Shown here: in pieces, positions 45 to 62,520 of the stretch
How the letters are laid out: each line of letters starts with the position of its first letter
Position numbering within the stretch: position 1 is the stretch's first letter
Origin: Ginglymostoma cirratum
Lineage: Eukaryota
Assembly (NCBI GenBank): GCA_024137785.1
Contig: JAHRHZ010000004.1
Location: 11,313,676-11,377,675, forward strand
Length of the DNA: 64,000 nucleotides
Direction: 5' to 3'
Made by a program: the position numbers and the translations under genes
Notes under the pieces: generated by a model
What the model saw: only the letters and a program-made list of their open reading frames with translations
Told to the model about the DNA's origin: nothing
Database searches by the model: none

Positions 45-1080
45 GTAGCTAGGAAGATGTTTGTTCATATGCAGAAGATAGGGTGGGGTAGGGGGTAAGG
101 AGTAATAATAGTTTGGGTTGGAGTCCAAACAGAGAGAAGAGCAGCTAGACAAAGGAGTGAATGACGATCTGGCTAGGAGGGTGAATAGCTGTTAATGAGG
201 ACCGTTAGTGACTAATATTTGGTTGTATGTAATAGCAGGCTGTGTGATAACAAGGCCTGGTTGTGGGGGTTGGGGTAAGGACATGGGAGAGCTCAAGCCC
301 TAAAGTTATTGAATTCGATATTGAGTCTGGAAGGCTGCAGGGACCCCAGGTGGAATTTGAGGTGTTGTTCTTCCAGCTTGTGCTGAGCTTTACTGGAAGC
401 ACTGCAGCAAGCCTGAGACAGAAATGCTAGCCAGGGAACAGGGTGATGTGTTGAAGTGGCAGGCAACTGGAAGCTCAGGGTCCTTTTCTGCGAACAAAAC
501 GCAAGTGTTCTGTGAAGCAGTCACGTAGTCTTCACTTTATTCCCCCAATGTAGAGGAGACCACATTGTGAGCAGTGTATGCAACAAATTAGATTGTATGA
601 AGTGCAGGTAAAGTGCTGCTTCAGCTGAAAGGTAATTTTGGGCCCTTGGATACTGGGGAGGGAGGAAGTAAACAGACAGGCATTACACCTTCTGCGGTTG
701 CATCGGAAGGTGCCGTGAGGTGTGGTGGGAGTCAGAGATGGACCAGATTAAGGTGAGATAGAAATTGGAAGTGAAGTTGATAAACCAATTCCAGAGAGGG
801 AAGCAGCACCCATGATATCATAGATATATTGGAGAAAGAGTTGTGGGTGGGGGCTGGAATATGACTGGAACAAGGAATGTTCCATGTACCCTACAAAGAA
901 ACAGGCATAACTGGGTCCCATATGTGTACCAAAGGTCACCCTTCTGACACTAAGAAACTGAGAAGAGTTAAAAGAAATTTGTTCAGGGTGAGGAAGTGCT
1001 CGGCCAGGCAGAGGAGGCTGGTGGTGGATGGAGAAGATTCAGGTCTTTGTTCCAGAAAGAACCAGAGAGCCCAGAAACCA
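45..1080 (-). mobile_element. Degenerate Penelope-like retroelement (Neptune type): RT fragment, GIY-YIG endonuclease and 3' UTR
   Basis: Minus strand 748-939 reads GTHMGPSYACFFVGYMEHSLFQSY...QLFLQYIYDIMGAAS (PLE RT, YIDD decayed). About 490-610 reads TCTSYNLICCIHCSQCGLLYIGGIK*RLRDCFTEHLR (GIY-YIG with CxxC). The C-terminal KLEEQHL-like segment lies near 360-380. Stops are present, with an apparent internal deletion near 745. Confidence 0.9.
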
Positions 1081-1092
1081 ATTGTAAATCAA

Positions 1093-1604
1093 AAACAAAG
1101 CAGAAGTCGCTGGAAAAGCTGAGCAGGTCTGACAGCATCTGTGAAGAAAAAAATCAGAATTAATGTTTCAGCACCTCATTTTCCACCTCGGGGCCCTGAA
1201 GCCTTCCAGACTTGATATCAAATTCAATAGCTTTAAGGCATGAACTCTCCCATGTCCTTACCCCAACCGCCCACAACCAGGCCTTGTTACCACACAGCCT
1301 GCTATTCCATACCACCAATTATTAGCAACTAACAGTCCTCATTAACAGCTATTCATCCTCCTAGCCAGATCATCATCTACTGCTTTGCCTGTCTAACTGC
1401 TCTTCTCTCTCTCTGGGCTCTATTCTCACATTTTGTTCACTCCTTACCCCCTCCCACTATTCTATCTTCTGCATATGAGCTGACATTTTCCTTGTTACCA
1501 TCAGTTCTGAGGAAGGATCACTGGACCCAAAATGTTAACTCTGATTTCTCTCCACAGATGCTGCCAGACCTGTTAATCTTTTCCAGCAATTTCTATTTTT
1601 GTTA
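1093..1604 (+). mobile_element. Non-autonomous Penelope derivative: inverted pLTR arm, EN C-terminus/3'UTR, then pLTR with decayed hammerhead motif
   Basis: Arms ~1093-1171 and ~1527-1604 are inverted copies. 1172-1499 is a diverged reverse complement of 45-364. AGTT-CTGAGGA-A-GGATC-ACTG-GACCC-AAAA-TGTT-AACT lies at 1503-1540. Confidence 0.85.
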
Positions 1605-2049
1605 CAGATTCTCACATGCAGTTCTCCAATTCAGGAGGAAACAACATGAAAAAAGAGGTTCAGAGAAATTAGCAGCTAGAAATCATTTACTGAAGCTTCC
1701 ACCTCTTCTGGGACCCCAAACAGCTTCTGACTGCTGAAGCTGAAAAAAAACTACAAAGCTTGATCTGTGAGAGTGGCCAATCTTCTTCCATTGTTCCAAC
1801 TGTATTTAAAAACAAACCCAAAGGCCTCCTAAGTTAATTTCTTAAGCTGTTTTCAGTAACCAGTTGACCCCTCTGCTTTTACAACCTGTCTTCTAAAAAA
1901 AACCCAGGACAAAAATAACCTTTTTTAAAGTGGCAGCATTGTCATAATACTTAGTAAATATGTTTCATTCCAAATTATCTGGCATAGAGACTACAAAATA
2001 TAAAACATATCTATTCATCCTCATTCATATTTCCCTCAAATTCTTAACT

Positions 2050-7089: not shown

Positions 7090-7355
7090 TCTTAATTCCT
7101 TAACGGGATGAGGGTGTCGCTGCCTAGGTAGTATTCATTGCCCATCCCTAATTGGCCAGAGGGCAGTTAAGAGCCAACCACATTGCTGTGGGTCTGGAGT
7201 TACATGTAGGCCAGGCCAGGTAAGGATGGCAGTTTCCTTCCCTAAATGACATTCGTGAACCAGATGGGTTTTTTCTGACAATCGACAATGGATTCATGAT
7301 CATCATTAGATTCTTAATTCTAGATATTTATTGAATTCAAATTCCACCATCTGCC
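7090..7355 (-). mobile_element. Shark SINE (family also at 44260, 57283, 62194)
   Basis: High similarity to 62194-62520 (ttgcccatccctaatt...gagggcagttaagag...ggtctggag...ccaggtaagga.ggcagtttccttccctaaa). Confidence 0.85.
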
Positions 7356-8324: not shown

Positions 8325-8530
8325 GAGATAGCAAGAACTGCAGATGCTTGAAGTCAGAGTCAATACAGTGTTTAGTTGGAGGAACACAGTGGGACAGGCA
8401 GCATCAAAAGAGCAGGAAAGTCAACATTTCGGGTCGGGTCCTGATGAAGGGTTCCAACCCAAAATGTGGTCTTTCCTGCTCCTCTGATGCTGCCTGACCT
8501 GCTGTGTTTCTCCAGTTCCATACTATATCA
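8325..8530. mobile_element. Palindromic Penelope-derived mini-element with hammerhead-like motif
   Basis: Tail ggagatagcaagaactgcagatgct, inverted arms ~8364-8432 and ~8455-8525, and CTGATGA-A-GGGTT-CC-AACCC-AAAA at 8441-8464. Confidence 0.85.
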
Positions 8531-8539
8531 AATTTACTA

Positions 8540-9072
8540 CTTCAACTGTGTGCAGTTTTGGTCACCCTGCAATAGGAAAGATTTTGTTAAATTGGAAAGG
8601 GTGCAAAAAAAATTTACAAGGATGTTACCGAGACTGGAGAGTTTGAGTTATAAGAGAGGTTGACTAGGCTGGGACTTTTCTCCCCAGAGCGTAGGAAGTT
8701 GAGGATGGAGGTTATAGAGGTTCATAAAATCATGAGAGGCAGAGATAAGGTGAATAGAAAAGGTGAATAGGGTAGGGGAGTTCAAAACTAGAAGGCACAA
8801 TTTTAAGGTGAGAGGGGAAAGAATTCAAAGGAACCTAAAAGGCAACTTTTTCACACAGTGAGCGATTTGGATGTGGAATGAAATGCCAGAGAAAGTGATA
8901 GATGCAGGTGTAGTCACTATATTTAAAGGACATTTGGACAGGTATGTGAATAGGAAAGATTTAGAGGGACATGGGCCAAATGCATGCAAATCAGACAGGT
9001 TCAGTTTGAGAAACCTGGTCAGGATGGATGAGTTACACTGAAGTGTCTGTTTCCATGCTCTATGACTCTATC
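8540..9072 (+). mobile_element. CR1/HER1 LINE 3' fragment
   Basis: CVQFWSPCNRKDFVKLERVQKKFTRMLPRLESLSY (CR1 ORF2 C-terminus), with a 3' tail ending ctatgactctat. Confidence 0.92.
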
Positions 9073-9984: not shown

Positions 9985-10190
9985 AAAATAAAATCAGAGG
10001 ATTGCTGATGCTAGAGATCTGAAGTGAAAACAGAAAACGCTGGAGTGACTCAGCAGTTCTGGCAGCATCTATGGAGAGAAAAACAGAGTTAACGCCGGAG
10101 TGCGAAATGAACACGAACTGAGTTCCACATAAAGTCATAAGGGGCTAGAAAAGTTACCTTTGTTTCTCTCTCCACCGATGCTGCCATAGT
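9985..10190. mobile_element. Old palindromic Penelope-derived mini-element
   Basis: Arm ...ggcagcatctatggagagaaaaacagagttaacg and inverted arm ...tgtttctctctccaccgatgctgcc, with a tail at the left. Confidence 0.75.
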
Positions 10191-14094: not shown

Positions 14095-14305
14095 AAAACT
14101 GATGATGCTGAAGATGTGAAACAATACCAGAAATTGCTGGATACACTTAGCGGGTCTGGCAGCATATTATGAGAGAAAGCAGAGTTAAACTTTCGAGTCC
14201 AGTTTTGTTCTCAAGAAGGGTCATGGCACTCGAAAAATTAACTGTTTTCTCTCGACGGATGTTGCCAGACCTGCTGAGTTTCTACAGAAATTTCTATTTT
14301 TCTTA
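14095..14305. mobile_element. Palindromic Penelope-derived mini-element
   Basis: Arm agaaattgctgg...gtctggcagcat...gagttaaactttcgagtcc and inverted arm actcgaaaaattaactg...gttgccagacctgctgagtttc. Confidence 0.8.
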
Positions 14306-14620: not shown

Positions 14621-15255
14621 CTGTTTTACTATATATATCGTCTCTAAAATAAAGGGACTTATGGTGCAACAAAACTAAACCAATTGTCTCAAATCTGCAA
14701 TTTACGAGAGGCCTACGATCTCTGCACATTACTTGCTTGGAAATGAATACATAAAAGAAATTCGATTTTCCCTTGGCAAACACATAAACAGCTAACAGTC
14801 TGAACTGAAGCTGGTATTTAGAAGTTTGGAAAGAAAATTAAACATCACTGGCCGTTCGAGAGAGAAGATGACGCGGCATCCATGCGAAGCATGAGCCTGA
14901 ATGAATCTATTTGAACATCAGAAATTTCATTCAGAACTAAAATGACTTAGGGTGCAAGCATTGGCGGGTTCTGTTGAAGGCCTCCACGCCTTCCCTTTTA
15001 ACAAAGGTATTTTGATCGTAAAGCTAGTTCTGATAGAATATAAGTTCGATAGTTTTGAGGACTATATAAAGGGACTCATAGAATCTGAAATATCAGCGCT
15101 CACCCATAGATTCTAAAGGGCGGAAATATACAACGGGATCCATATACAACATAGGTAAGAGATAATAGGTACTGCAGATGCTGGAGAATCCGAGATAACA
15201 AGGTGTGGGGCTGGATGAACACAGCAGGCCAAGCAGCATCATAGGAGCAGGAAAG

Positions 15256-15289
15256 CTTGACGTTTCGGGCCTAGACCCTTCATCAGAAA
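15256..15289 (-). ncRNA. Minimal type I hammerhead ribozyme motif (inverted copy)
   Basis: Exact reverse complement of 15656-15689. Confidence 0.65.
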
Positions 15290-15655
15290 NNNNNNNNNNN
15301 NNNNNNNNNNNNNNNNNNNNNNNNNNNNNNNNNNNNNNNNNNNNNNNNNNNNNNNNNNNNNNNNNNNNNNNNNNNNNNNNNNNNNNNNNGTTTTTCCTCT
15401 CACCTATCCCCTCCTCCCATCTCAAGCCCCACCCCCATCTCCTATCTACTAACATCATCCCGCCCCCTTGACCTGTCCGTCCTCCCTGGACTGACCTATC
15501 TCCTCCCTACCCCCACACCTACACTCACCTTTACTGGCTCCATCCCCGCCTCTTCGACCTGTCTGCCTCCTCTCCACCTATCCTCTCCTCTATCCATCCT
15601 CTATCCGCCTCCCCCTCTCTCCCTATTTATTTCAGAACCCCGTTCCCCTCCCCCA

Positions 15656-15689
15656 TTTCTGATGAAGGGTCTAGGCCCGAAACGTCAAG
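15656..15689 (+). ncRNA. Minimal type I hammerhead ribozyme motif (predicted)
   Basis: UUU-CUGAUGA-A-GGGUCUAGGCCC-GAAA-CGUC-AAG: complete core, stem II, palindromic ACGU stem III and GUC cleavage triplet. Stem I is only ~3 bp and activity is not shown. Confidence 0.65.
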
Positions 15690-16074
15690 CTTTCCTGCTC
15701 CTATGATGCTGCTTGGCCTGCTGTGTTCATCCAGCCCCACACCTTGTTATCCCATATACAACATAATTCAGTTCTAGTGTGGACAATTGCAAACATTCGC
15801 GAAATATAATCATTCGTTGGGGATGTGCGAGGGAAGTCTTCAAATTTGAATAATCATCATGATTTTATTAATAAAACGTGATATCTAGCAACACACTATA
15901 GCATTTACTTGGGTTAAATTCAAAGATTCTGCCTCTGTCAAGCACATTGACATTGACCGATCAATATCAGTTGGAAGAATTTGTGTCTCTCAAACTGAAG
16001 TAGGTGAATGGGCGGAGATTGGTCAATGTGGCCGAGCCACAGGAAGAGAGGTCCACCCAAATTTTCGGGTATCG

Positions 16075-46079: not shown

Positions 46080-46176
46080 GTTTTCTGAAGAAGGGTCCAG
46101 ACCCGAAAAGTCAGCTTTCCGACTCCTCTGATGCTGCTTGGCCTGCTGTGTTCATCCAGCTCTACACCTTGTTATC
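46080..46176 (+). mobile_element. 97-bp solo Penelope pLTR insertion (hammerhead motif plus arm) with 14-bp TSD
   Basis: CTGAAGA-A-GGGTC-CA-GACCC-GAAA-AGTC at 46085-46112. TSD CCATCTAACATTGA is at 46066-46079 and 46177-46190. Confidence 0.9.
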
Positions 46177-46812: not shown

Positions 46813-47040
46813 CAATAAAAGCAAAGTTCTACAGGTGTTGAAAAGTGAAATAAAAGCAAAGTGCTGAAGAAACTCAACAGGTCTGGCGGCATATGTGGAG
46901 AGGGAAAGAAAGTTAACATTTTGAGTCCAATATAACTTGTGTCAGAACTTCAAAAGAGAGTCGTAGCGAATTTAGAACATTAACTCTGTTTCTCTCTCCA
47001 CACTTGTTGAGTTTCTCCAGCACTTTCTGTTCTTATCTCT
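46813..47040. mobile_element. Old palindromic Penelope-derived mini-element
   Basis: Arm aaactcaacaggtctggcggcatatgtggagaggg...gttaacattttgagtcc and inverted arm aacattaactctgtttctctctccac...gttgagtttctccagcacttt. Confidence 0.75.
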
Positions 47041-51010: not shown

Positions 51011-53345
51011 ATTTGTATGTGCTGCCTAATGATACAACCACAGTCTCCTGGAACTTGAAAACATTAGTTCCTAGCATTGGAGGATTCGCAACATTCCCTC
51101 CAACTTTTAGTCTATTCTTTTAAGTGCTTTTGAGACCATTATTATTTTTCTTTTGTTTTTTCTCATTTTTGGTTGGAACTGTGAGTTGCAACTGAGAATT
51201 TAACATTGAACAGCAGCAGGTTTCAAAAAGAAAGAGATGTTTGCTGTTGGGATCTGGCCTGGAAAGATGAAGTAAGTCAATTACTGCTCTGAGGACACTG
51301 TAGATGAACTGGCACCCAGATGTCATTATGCTCAGGGACTGGTAGCTGATTGGGTGTTGAATTGATCAATCAAAGGAGGACTGGTGCTGGCCAGCCAATC
51401 ACAGACAGTGTTGAGAAAGAAAAAGAAAAACTAAAGGTGAACTGGCTTTGACTGGGCTTTTGGGCAGGAAGTCAAGTACTGCTTTGGAAGCTTCAGCACT
51501 GGGCCTTTTGGTTTTTCTCTATTTATTCTCCGGTAGTAAAATTGTTCAAAGTCCTGGGAAAGAATCTCACTCTATAAGAAATCAAGAAATGTCTTTGTAG
51601 GTCTACAGAAGATGTCTATTTTGACTGGCGACTTTGGAATTCTTTAAGATACAATTCTAGGTGCCTCTAATACAACCCATCGGATTTCATGAAGGCTTAG
51701 TATTCATCGTGAAATGGCTAATGAACTGGCAACTTCTGATTTTGTTTTTATTTATTGCTTAACTATGTCTGTCAGTGTGTAAGTAGGGGCCGGTAAGAAG
51801 ATTGGGCTTAGTTTGTAGTTATTTATTAGGTTGCCTTGTTGTTCATCTGTGTTCTGCTAAAGTCACATTATTAATAGTAAATTGTTACTTTTGTTTGAGT
51901 TATGAACTCAAACAAGTCTAAGATATTCTACTTGTAAAGGCTGATTAGGAACAATTGAACAATTTTGAGGGTCATTGAATGGTTAAATTTCACTGTGTTG
52001 TGCATCCAGTGGTAATGAGTCAGATTTGGTCTGGCATTCTGTACCTGTGTCATAACAGTGTGCGAGACCTTTAAATACTTTTGTTTGACCAGATTTGTGC
52101 AGTGAATTAAAGGAGCTGACTTGTGCTTGGCCTATGCATGAATTTCCATGTTTTTGTCCTGCTGCACTGTTTAAAGGGATAAAGAATGGCTCCCATGCAC
52201 ATACAATGTGTCCTTTTGTAACCCAGGCAACAATAAAAAGAATGGTGGATGTAGTGGGCTCAATGTTGGGTTCCCATAATTTAAGAGTACAGCTTCCTTC
52301 AGTGCCTCTTTTGGCATGTTCTATAAGGTCCATTGATGTATTCTTCACTGCCTACTTAAAAGCAGCAACCCTGACAATCCCATTCAATTCTTTCTGTAAG
52401 CTTCCTTTCCAATAAACATGCTAGGTGCTAACGTTACCAATCTCCTTCCTAAATAACTCATCACTTCAAGTACTGACACAGTGAATTCTGTCCCACCATA
52501 TATCTCCCTTCAGCATGTCCATTTCGTAATGGACAAAGATCTTGCCCTCCATGAGGTTATTATGGGTGGTTGCATTGACATCATGGCATTGATTGAAAAT
52601 GGGCTGAAGGGTGATAACGCATTCCTCTGAGATGGAGCCTTCCCATCTGGCTCCACCTCCAACCATTGCTCCACCAGACCATAACAATTTTTCTCATCAC
52701 TAAATCAGACCTTTTTCACTATTTGTGACACCTTCTCTTCCTTTGAGCATCTTGATATACGTCACCTCTCATTTGAAAACTTTAATCCATCCAAGTACCA
52801 TGACAGCTTTCTTGGTGATATCATCACGACTTTCTGTTGTGTATTGCATTGAGAAGAAACGTACCATGTGGATTTCCTGTAAGCACTCATTATTGATCTA
52901 ACTTTACTGTACACATTCCTGACAGAAACAGAGAGGGCAGCGAAGAGGCCACTATGATATACCACACTCCCTCCCCACTTAAGCAACTTAAACATGAAAA
53001 TACAAAATGACATGTGCATAAATTTGCAGAATAAAATATGAATGAACCAACATCAGCAATATCTTAAATTTAAAGGTTAGGTTGCAAATTTAGTATTACT
53101 GTATCACAACTAAAGTATATATGATCAATATTACCAGAATAACTTGCATGTGAAAAATATTTGTTTAACTTTAGTTTGTGTTTAACAAAATATCATAACG
53201 TGATTAAAAAAATGAAAAGAAGTATGTTTTCATGTTTTCTTCCCACATACTTTCATTTAAATAATCTAACTCTTTCAGTCTGGGTACCTTCTTTCAATTC
53301 CAGCTCCATTAGCTTGATTGCTCTCTCAACATTGTAAAAGATTAA

Positions 53346-53577
53346 CAAAAACAGAAGTTGCTGGAAAAGCTCAGCAGGCCTGGCAGCATCTGTGAAGAAA
53401 AATCAGAGTTAATGTTTTGGACCCTGTGAGAAAGGGTCTGTTCTGAAGATAGGTCACTGGACCTGAAACATTAACTCTGATTTTTCTTCGCAGACGCTGC
53501 CAGACCAGTTGAGATTTTCCAGCAACTTCTGTTTTTCGTCCTGATTTCCAGCATTCGCAGCTCTTTCATTTTTTTTG
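53346..53577. mobile_element. Palindromic Penelope-derived mini-element nested in the Gypsy remnant
   Basis: Inverted arms ~53346-53420 and ~53460-53537. GTT-CTGAAGA-T-AGGTC-ACTG-GACCT-GAAA-CATT-AAC lies at 53440-53475, with the tail on the right. Possible 14-bp TSD TTGTAAAAgaTTAA (53332-53345) / TTGTAAAAttTTAA (53578-53591). Confidence 0.88.
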
Positions 53578-55164: not shown

Positions 55165-56430
55165 TTGAGGCTTGGCTATTGCAATGCAGTCCTAAATAAC
55201 CTTCCATGTTCTACCCATCATGAACATCAAAGCGACCAAAACACTGCTGCCCCTACCCTAACTCATATCTAGTTCTTTTGCACTCAACACCTTCCTGCTC
55301 ACTGAACTACACTGGCTCCCAGCTAAGCAATACATCAATTTTGAAATTTTCATCCTTGTTTTCAAATCCCTCTATAGCCTCACCCATCCCATCTCACTGT
55401 AATCTCCTCCAGCCCTATAACACTCCAAGATTTCTACACTTTCAGTTCTGATGCCTCAAGCGTCCCCAGTTATAACTGTTACCCCTTCGGTGGTCATGTC
55501 CTTAGCTGCTAGGGCCCAAAGCTTTGCAATTCCTTCTCCAAACCTTTCCACATTGCCTAGCTCCCTTTCCTCCTCTAAGATGTTCCTTTTTTGAAAAACT
55601 ACTTATTTGGGTCAGAGATAAAAGGTACTGCAGATGCTGGAGAATCCGAGAAAGCAAGTTGTGGGGCTGGATGAACACAGCAGGCCAAGCAGCATCATAG
55701 GAGCAGGNNNNNNNNNNNNNNNNNNNNNNNNNNNNNNNNNNNNNNNNNNNNNNNNNNNNNNNNNNNNNNNNNNNNNNNNNNNNNNNNNNNNNNNNNNNNN
55801 NNNNNNNNNNNNNNNNNNNNNNNNNNNNNNNNNNNNNNNNNNNNNNNNNNNNNNNNNNNNNNNNNNNNNNNNNNNNNNNNNNNNNNNNNNNNNNNNNNNN
55901 NNNNNNNNNNNNNNNNNNNNNNNNNNNNNNNNNNNNNNNNNNNNNNNNNNNNNNNNNNNNNNNNNNNNNNNNNNNNNNNNNNNNNNNNNNNNNNNNNNNN
56001 NNNNNNNNNNNNNNNNNNNNNNNNNNNNNNNNNNNNNNNNNNNNNNNNNNNNNNNNNNNNNNNNNNNNNNNNNNNNNNNNNNNNNNNNNNNNNNNNNNNN
56101 NNNNNNNGAAAATGAGGTGTTGTTCTTCCAGCTTGCATTGAGCTTCACTGGAATGCTGCAACAAGACAGAGACAGAGATGTTGGCCAGGGAATGGGGTGG
56201 TGTGTTAAAGTGGCAGGTTTCCTGCTCCTATGATGCTGCTTGGCCTGCTGTGTTCATCCAGCCCCACAACTTGTTATCTCTAACTAATTATTTGGCCCTG
56301 CTTTTAGCTATCTGCACTACTATCTTGTTGTGTTTTTTTTAATATTTTGTTTGAGAACGCAATTGTGAAGTGCCTCAGGATGTTTTATTATGTTAATGGG
56401 TCTAAATAAATGCAAATTGTTTTTGTTATT
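55165..56430 (+). mobile_element. L2-type LINE 3' fragment interrupted by a Penelope derivative
   Basis: RLGYCNAVL...LTELHWLPAKQYINFEIFILVFKSLYSLTHP (L2 ORF2 C-terminus). The tail gtgaagtgcctcaggatgttttattatgttaatgggtctaaataaatgcaaattgtt resumes after 56296. Confidence 0.85.
55611..56281. mobile_element. Young Penelope derivative with inverted arms, EN remnant and 14-bp TSD (gap inside)
   Basis: Tail plus arm at 55615-55707 and inverted arm at 56218-56280. Minus strand LQHSSEAQCKLEEQHLIF (EN C-terminus) at 56108-56164. TSD AACTACTTATTTGG (55597-55610) / AACTAATTATTTGG (56282-56295). Confidence 0.9.
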
Positions 56431-57282: not shown

Positions 57283-57580
57283 TTATTCATTCACAAGATG
57301 TAATTGCCCAGTTAAGAGTCGGCCATATTGATAGGGGTCCAGAACGATATATAGGCCAGACCAGGTACGGTTGGCAGCTTTCTTCCTGAAAAGACATTAG
57401 CAAACCAGATGGGTTTTTCTGACAATCAGCAATGGATCTAGGGTCGTTGTTAGACTCTTAATTGCAGATTTTTATTGAATGTAACTACCACCATCTGCCA
57501 TGTGCGATTTGAACCCCAGTTGCAAGAATATTTCCTGGGTCTCTATACTACTGTGACAATACCAATCAGCCATCACCTTC
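57283..57580 (-). mobile_element. Shark SINE (7090 family)
   Basis: ttattcattcac...gttaagagtc...ggccagaccaggta...ccagatgggtttttctgacaatc. Confidence 0.8.
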
Positions 57581-62193: not shown

Positions 62194-62520
62194 TTTTTAA
62201 AATTCATTCATGGGATGAGGGCATCACTAGCTAGGCCAGCATTTATTGCCCATCCCTAATTGCACAGAGGGCAGTTAAGAGAAAACCACATTGGCGTGGG
62301 TCTGGAGACACATGTAGGACGGACCAGGTAAGGACGGCAGTTTCCTTCCCTAAAGGAAATGAGTGAGCCACATGGGTTTTTCCCGGCAACTGACGACAGA
62401 TTCATGGTCAAGCTTACACTTTTAATTCCAGATTTCTAAAAAATGAAATCAAATTCCATCATCTGCAATGGGGGGCAGATTAACTGTCCAGTGATAATAC
62501 CACTGAACCATCACCTACCC
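62194..62520 (-). mobile_element. Shark SINE (7090 family, near full length)
   Basis: attcattcatgggatgagggcatcactagctaggccagcatttattgcccatccctaatt...gtgataataccactgaaccatcacct (tRNA-like head at the right end). Confidence 0.85.

Follow-up and report, generated by a model that had tools for sequence, protein, structure and literature searches.

The 64,000-nt window, the whole stretch of DNA analysed here, contains at 15154-15751 what is very probably a single insertion of an EN-bearing Penelope-like retrotransposon (PLE), most likely of the Neptune clade, whose 3' end is seen twice, head to head. It is a PLE insertion by its pLTR, tail, TSD and ribozyme, and it is laid out as follows.

15140-15153, no strand: left TSD copy, identical at 14/14 positions to 15752-15765.
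15154-15193, minus strand: PLE tail of 40 nt, a 3' extension of the pLTR carried by the left arm only; the same tail occurs at 55610-55649 (to +40) and at 8325 (to +35).
15194-15289, minus strand: pLTR arm of the left side, whose sense strand is the minus strand and whose 5' end meets the gap; complementary to the right arm.
15256-15289, minus strand: left-arm minimal type I hammerhead, a descriptor match that mirrors the right-arm motif, with C3 at 15286 and a predicted cut after 15259.
15290-15389, no strand: 100-N assembly gap, which contains the inversion junction.
15390-15655, plus strand: C/T-rich stretch, by position and composition the likely PLE 3' UTR upstream of the pLTR.
15656-15751, plus strand: right pLTR arm, tailless, ending at the proximal 3' terminus of the family.
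15656-15689, plus strand: right-arm minimal type I hammerhead, with 13/13 core letters.
15752-15765, no strand: right TSD copy.

The perfect 96-bp inverted arms described in an earlier, sequence-only reading are borne out, 15194-15289 and 15656-15751 being complementary at 96/96 positions. This length is a minimum, since the left arm stops exactly at the 100-N gap. The 14-bp TSD of that reading is also exact, and the 14-mer occurs exactly twice in the window; such a match has a chance probability of 1e-8 per site, or 2.5e-5 when 50x50 choices of boundary are allowed. The tail had been given as 35 nt on one arm. It is indeed one-sided, and its length is corrected to 40 nt: the sibling insertion at 55610 agrees with the focal tail to +40, and only the older copy at 8325 stops at +35. 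The two focal arms have in common a private extra A after the cut site, absent from the copy at 46082. An assembly artefact, in which unrelated repeat copies were scaffolded over the gap or the arm identity came from repeat collapse, would suit a left arm that ends at a gap, a high-copy family and perfect identity. It is nevertheless extremely unlikely, given the unique 14-mer duplicated exactly at both outer ends, the variants in both arms that are not found together in other copies, and the gap-free inverted copies of the same design elsewhere in the window.

The arms belong to the first of two pLTR families, A and B, for which profiles were built from window copies (six family-A and eight family-B seeds, which match by construction). 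The profiles gave 20 and 21 matches, corresponding to 22 segments and 1805 bases, so that the pLTR family and its relatives make up about 2.8% of the window (1805/64000 bases); on the reversed window there were 0 matches. The two profiles cross-match with E down to 2e-6; the A and B pLTRs share only about 61% of positions, and between the UTRs of the two families there is no alignment. Three further insertions are needed for the comparison.

46080-46176, plus strand: solo family-A pLTR with a 14-bp TSD, starting at the hammerhead 5' edge.
55610-56281, minus strand: sibling insertion with a 13/14-bp TSD, a 40-nt tail, an inverted tailless arm, a gap of 400 N and, at 56108-56212, a C-terminal fragment of GIY-YIG.
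45-1630, minus strand: older, decayed family-B PLE, with RT motifs, a CX4CxxC linker and GIY-YIG at 299-1079 (minus strand).

Family A comprises nine arms in six insertions (1, 8325, 15154, 40631, 46082 and 55610). TSDs of 14-17 bp are present at 4 of 12 candidate insertions, all of family A (14 bp at the focal copy; 14, 14 and 17 bp at siblings), and the other eight, mostly older, show no TSD above chance. Three of the four TSDs (15140, 46066 and 55597-55610) start with CCA when read from one element end, a possible target preference in a sample too small to judge. The 3' termini of the nine arms are placed at 0 to +2 in five cases and at +35 to +40 in three, with one old arm aligned to -9. 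Both termini lie in or just after a TTATCTC-like motif that is repeated 35 nt apart and may define RT start sites (15751, 46176, 56281, 44, 15154, 55610 and 8325). Inside, the six insertions differ wherever they are visible, being variously a solo pLTR, a truncated arm, a hairpin, an EN fragment or UTR; in two of them a gap or the edge of the window conceals part of the sequence. Because the visible interiors differ, no repeated MITE-like unit is seen in the window. Two fixed end points 35-40 nt apart, combined with varied interiors, fit truncation and inversion at integration and not a MITE-like unit. The earlier description of inverted pLTRs with a one-sided tail is upheld by the focal arms, by the sibling at 55610 and by published PLE anatomy.

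These observations also bear on a DNA-transposon MITE with long terminal inverted repeats, whose likeness to a hammerhead would be due to chance. Such an element would account for the length and perfection of the inverted arms, for the TSD and for the non-coding interior; it is scarcely credible here, being already contradicted by solo and truncated single arms with TSDs of their own. Moreover, the arms are asymmetric by 40 nt, the TSDs measure 14-17 bp, the arm family is homologous to an EN-linked pLTR, and the chance rate of the hammerhead descriptor is 1/200 windows.

The window also holds five older head-to-head pLTR hairpins of 170-210 nt with differing junctions (8325-8530, 10020-10190, 14114-14305, 46830-47040 and 53343-53545). 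Two of them were compared with Rfam and resemble miRNA precursors at scores under the cut-off (mir-5879, E 3e-7, a likeness seen also by sequence); such hairpins could be small-RNA sources or annotation traps. Two copies other than the focal one gave only generic miRNA-hairpin and weak matches in Rfam.

The link to PLE proteins comes through family B. The element at 299-1079 (minus strand) has an internal deletion that fuses RT motif C to the EN linker, and an inverted copy of the end of this PLE lies at 1169-1630 (plus strand), with the EN stop, a 263-nt UTR and a hammerhead pLTR; the arms are identical at 275/323 positions. A family-A pLTR end at 1-44 abuts the family-B UTR and was apparently inserted into it. 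The family-B EN linker finds 586 proteins at E<=0.001, and the element matches five proteins of 816-927 aa over RT and EN, in which Pfam recognizes GIY-YIG (5/5) and RVT_1 (4/5), mostly below gathering cut-offs. When 153 fetched PLE-related proteins were compared with the window by tblastn, matches were confined to the 299-1079 element and the EN fragment of the sibling. This fragment (56108-56212) is 54% identical to P0002, is matched by 2/153 proteins and is 84% identical in DNA to the family-B EN. It may be captured family-B sequence, because this identity far exceeds the roughly 61% of the A and B pLTRs, whose UTRs are unalignable; the insertion at 55610-56281 would then be a possible cross-family template switch or capture of an EN fragment. 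Its 400-N gap is about the size expected for the remaining pLTR, UTR and EN end (about 360).

The family-B pLTR thus lies 263 nt behind a GIY-YIG stop, and the focal pLTR is homologous to it through the cross-matches of the profiles. No protein tied to family A itself was found in the visible window sequence. The CX2-5CxxC linker and the cysteines within the GIY-YIG core are present in the family-B element at 535-747 (minus strand); family A shows none in visible sequence. The probable assignment of the focal insertion to Neptune comes from the neighbouring family B rather than from a tree, and Nematis shares the linker. A search of the ESM Atlas with the EN linker returned eukaryotic PLE-like clusters without a useful taxon. 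The earlier proposal of a PLE origin, with mobilisation by a PLE RT/GIY-YIG, is sustained by the homologues in the window together with the published anatomy. Pfam found nothing significant in five short fragments and 0 families in 148 further ORFs of at least 68 aa (of 153 listed, four others being covered by the scan of the fragments), so no host gene was identified. ARAGORN found 0 tRNAs in the window, an exact 29-nt pLTR pattern had 0 matches in bacterial and archaeal genomes, and a bacterial promoter/terminator scan, irrelevant to a eukaryote, also gave 0.

The visible part of the focal insertion has no coding capacity, as had been stated: 0/153 PLE-related proteins match 15154-15751 by tblastn. 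The wider description of the element as non-coding and non-autonomous stands for this visible part and is not established for the whole, because the gap at 15290-15389 starts 269 nt upstream of C3, approximately where the EN stop is expected (263 nt in family B). The intervening stretch (15390-15655) has 135 C and 76 T among its 266 nt. The spacer between EN stop and C3 in family B consists of 263 pyrimidine-rich nt, and the focal copy shows 269 such nt before the gap. From position and composition only, we infer that 15390-15655 is a 3' UTR, which would place the start of the gap near the expected start of coding sequence. Beyond composition the stretch does not align with the family-B spacer (119/500 shuffles score as high), and profile and repeat comparison found no second copy of it in the 64-kb window. 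Protein searches with two translations of it gave 0 matches, so that the UTR could not be tied to an EN.

The gap may hide a long or complete ORF, in which case the insertion would be a near full-length young PLE (an inverted pLTR followed by pLTR-ORF-pLTR) collapsed in a short-read assembly. Its layout would be the 'typical Penelope structure' (PMC3846280), which the old element at 45-1630 also has. The gap starts at the expected EN stop, and the two gaps in the window, at the focal copy and at the sibling at 55610, are both round numbers (100 and 400 N). PLE copies are mostly 5'-truncated, however (PMC8557442), and we regard a hidden ORF as rather unlikely.

The hammerhead motif reported earlier is present in both arms, with C3 at 15659 (plus) and 15286 (minus). 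In the right arm the 5' strand of helix I (15656-58) is followed by C3-A9 (15659-65), an extra A (15666), helix II (15667-70/15675-78, 4 bp, G-C closed), G12-A14 (GAA, 15679-81), a palindromic ACGU (15682-85) that replaces helix III, C17 (15686) and the 3' strand of helix I (15687-89). The GUC cleavage site occupies 15684-15686, with predicted cuts after 15686 (plus) and 15259 (minus). All 13/13 letters of the core (C3-A9, G12-A14, A15.1-U16.1 and the NUH site, here GUC) are found in the focal motif, as are the extra base after A9, the G10.1-C11.1 pair and the palindromic 15.2-16.2 without helix III. Helix I has only 3 bp (U-A, U-A, U-G), and helix III lacks a loop. By sequence, this is a true PLE minimal hammerhead. 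The claim that it is of the minimal type I found in pLTRs is confirmed by its fit to the published metazoan PLE motif and by the relation of the arms to an EN-linked pLTR.

Our own minimal-hammerhead descriptor has two sites in 64 kb on both strands, namely the two focal arms, and 1 match in 200 mononucleotide shuffles, whereas the Rfam hammerhead families gave none: Rfam had 0 matches in the whole window at gathering score, and at E<=10 on 15100-15800 only RMST_8 (E 1.5, 16.8 of 80 bits) and sR36. The RMST_8 match (15145-15274), which did not recur at two other copies, was treated as chance.

Conservation of the core across the window copies, which the sequence-only reading had expected to be in excess, is seen between the families and not within them. 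The majority letters of A and B agree at 12/13 core and 48/79 non-core positions (one-sided Fisher p=0.022). Core matches number 13, 12 and 11 of 13 in three family-A copies and 11, 12, 13, 10, 6, 9 and 7 of 13 in seven family-B copies; within families there is little or no excess over other positions (36/39 vs 209/235 in A, 69/90 vs 440/560 in B), as is expected because copies decay after insertion. Covariation was examined in eight of the ten full-span copies, the two most decayed or misaligned being left out. In these eight related rows, helices I and II are 86% paired and two-sided changes occur at 4/7 pairs; 1-5/500 shuffles score as high on four of five measures and 191/500 on the fifth.

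The predicted activity is low. In nearest-neighbour folding, the probability of helix I in a single arm is near 0, and the active dimer has an energy of -3.5 against a dimer MFE of -33.8 kcal/mol, tertiary contacts being ignored. The ribozyme of the source element would work weakly, and would need either a same-sense partner with which to dimerise or the PLE protein. Helix II (15667-15678) is a near-palindrome, two RNA copies of which can pair as a 12-bp duplex, a possible dimer contact or trap. The fold of the tailed arm is no stronger than that of shuffles (z -0.35), and the consensus fold downstream of the ribozyme contains one 4-bp helix with no covariation. No publication devoted to the ribozyme of this pLTR family was found; repeat databases may already catalogue the family, and PMC4209133 may list it.

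It had further been suggested that each transcript carries one hammerhead and its antisense as a folding switch. Modelling does not support this. Whichever strand is read, transcription reaches the antisense arm before the sense hammerhead, and the arms pair fully. With the gap treated as unpaired, the MFE of the whole element is -224/-234 kcal/mol and the mean probability of arm pairing is 0.995, and in the full transcript that of hammerhead helix II is 1e-17 to 1e-21. The arm duplex has -205 kcal/mol, compared with -23/-26 for single arms, and the models offer no near-isoenergetic alternative fold to switch into. Hammerheads on opposite strands cannot form a same-sense dimer in cis. Read-through transcription of the focal locus would thus be predicted to give one long hairpin, double-stranded, in which the ribozyme is held inactive.

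The switch had been part of a broader proposal, in which the element is a non-autonomous PLE derivative in its own right, MITE-like and spreading as a unit, with its hammerhead present in sense and antisense. In favour of this, no coding sequence is visible, the window has several short pLTR hairpins of head-to-head design (near 8325, 10020, 14114, 46830 and 53343), non-autonomous PLE derivatives have been published (PMC8557442; preprint 10.64898/2026.07.22.740005), and pLTRs alone can mobilise DNA in trans (PMC3846280). Such a derivative is nonetheless highly unlikely. No other of the six family-A insertions shows the focal interior where visible, the C-rich interior occurring once in the window, the order and pairing of the arms are as described above, and the animal retrozymes described in the preprint (10.64898/2026.07.22.740005) are tandem same-sense repeats. 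A self-propagating hairpin subfamily is possible. The focal element as such is read here as one insertion of an EN-bearing PLE.

The formation of this insertion may be pictured from the TSDs and from the Anolis PLE. The GIY-YIG domain would nick both target strands about 14 nt apart, as the TSDs suggest, and each 3'-OH would prime reverse transcription on the element RNA, as it does for the Anolis PLE in vitro. A distal start site would yield the arm with the 40-nt tail and a proximal one the tailless arm. Both cDNAs would pass the pLTR and the hammerhead, stop at variable upstream points and be joined into an inverted repeat with a TSD on each side. The two hammerheads would then be one pLTR motif copied twice, because both cDNAs run through it. 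The right arm continues 269 nt upstream of the hammerhead, and both arms keep the whole ribozyme and the private extra A, which argues that one uncleaved template or source was copied twice.

Purified protein of the Anolis PLE cleaves both strands of the target and extends them, and its reverse transcription begins at two sites, one on each side of the tail; unprocessed RNA is its substrate, and the hammerhead cuts only in the presence of the protein (PMC11167929). By analogy, the two fixed 3' termini of family A match these two RT start sites flanking the tail and the cleavage and extension of both strands, in a model of two-sided priming that was derived in vitro with a protein of the Poseidon clade and leaves aside how inversions form in vivo.

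In the same element the inversion may have arisen not from two nicks but by fold-back self-priming at a palindrome on the antisense template, or by a template jump. PLE inversions of the head-to-head kind that have palindromes at their junctions have been explained in this way (PMC3846280, a proposal). Helix II is nearly palindromic and forms the 12-bp self-duplex, and the hairpin junctions at 8440 and in family B lie in or near it. By itself, however, this route does not explain two fixed 3' termini 35-40 nt apart, and the focal right arm extends past the hammerhead by 269 nt or more. It is a possible, though doubtful, origin of the focal inversion.

Among five family-A arms with a visible 5' end, two start at the ribozyme 5' edge, one inside helix II and two past the predicted cut. 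The latter, at 56218 and 40690, start 2 and 6 nt past it, a post-hoc pattern in few copies; by eye, 5' ends just past the cut are not seen in family B. That the insertion ends of this high-copy pLTR family record hammerhead cleavage in vivo is improbable. If true, and visible as a peak at the cut site over thousands of genomic copies, it would be direct evidence that a PLE hammerhead processes its template in vivo, something that the Anolis study could not detect (PMC11167929).

The earlier description of the element as recently active holds relative to its neighbours and not in absolute terms. With 96/96 identical positions, the focal pair is the least diverged of nine inverted pairs compared, the other eight having 56/58, 59/75, 72/83, 58/77, 32/37, 29/34, 275/323 and 64/80. 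Zero differences at 110 sites allow up to 2.7% divergence. The repeat suggests a cartilaginous fish as host; if the host is a shark, this bound corresponds to about 19 million generations at a rate of 7e-10 per generation (PMC10587355). Gene conversion between the arms could also keep them alike.

Other repeats are present in the window. A dispersed repeat of about 260 nt has three copies that are 67-79% alike (7094-7354, 57309-57502 and 62201-62470), with no tRNA found. The inverted pair 5975-6074/6746-6846 is 78% alike over 100 nt and is unrelated to the pLTR families. By eye, 8550-8900 resembles a CR1/L2-type LINE at its RT end and 3' portion.

As a single locus the focal insertion matters little: it displays known PLE anatomy cleanly, and it might be annotated as a MITE by mistake. 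A family with young intact and old decayed copies makes a good data set for the origin of head-to-head inversions and for pLTR hammerhead cutting in vivo.

Among known systems, the closest comparison is with the EN+ PLEs of the Neptune clade. Inverted pLTRs, a one-sided tail of 30-40 nt, a TSD and trouble in assembly form a published PLE pattern (PMC3846280, PMC8557442). The focal insertion shares with these elements the pLTR, the inverted 5'-truncated copy, the one-sided tail of that length, the variable-length TSD and the gaps in short-read assembly (PMC8557442, PMC3846280). Its relative in the window has the RT followed by the CX2-5CxxC linker and GIY-YIG; the focal copy differs in having no visible ORF. 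The Anolis PAc element, of the Poseidon clade, is alike in that the tail fits two RT start sites and unprocessed RNA is copied; it belongs to another clade, and the PAc ORF starts inside the hammerhead (PMC11167929).

MITEs resemble the focal insertion in being short, with inverted ends and a TSD. The focal insertion differs from them by its asymmetric ends, 14-17-bp TSDs, solo arms with TSDs, varied interiors and the absence of a transposase link. The non-LTR retrozymes of animals (preprint 10.64898/2026.07.22.740005) are alike in the non-coding visible part, the relation to PLEs and the type I hammerhead. They are head-to-tail tandem arrays with same-sense ribozymes, whereas the focal copy is a head-to-head pair with a TSD and a tail. 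A retrozyme was rejected, as the two hammerheads lie on opposite strands and not in head-to-tail same-sense units.

The hammerheads of metazoan PLEs are of type I, with an extra base between positions 9 and 10.1, a G10.1-C11.1 pair, a palindromic 15.2-16.2 and no helix III, and they have no activity as monomers and low activity as dimers (PMC4209133). The focal motif shares the type, the full core and the listed traits. Its helix II (4 bp and a 4-nt loop) does not reach the 7-8 bp described for the Schistosoma families, and its helix I, at 3 bp, is intermediate between Schistosoma (4-5 bp) and D. virilis (2 bp) (PMC4209133). Dual motifs on opposite strands, 100-700 bp apart, were described by Cervera and de la Pena in 2014 (PMC4209133). 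A self-cutting motif in each end is normal for PLEs, and the feature is real but ordinary.
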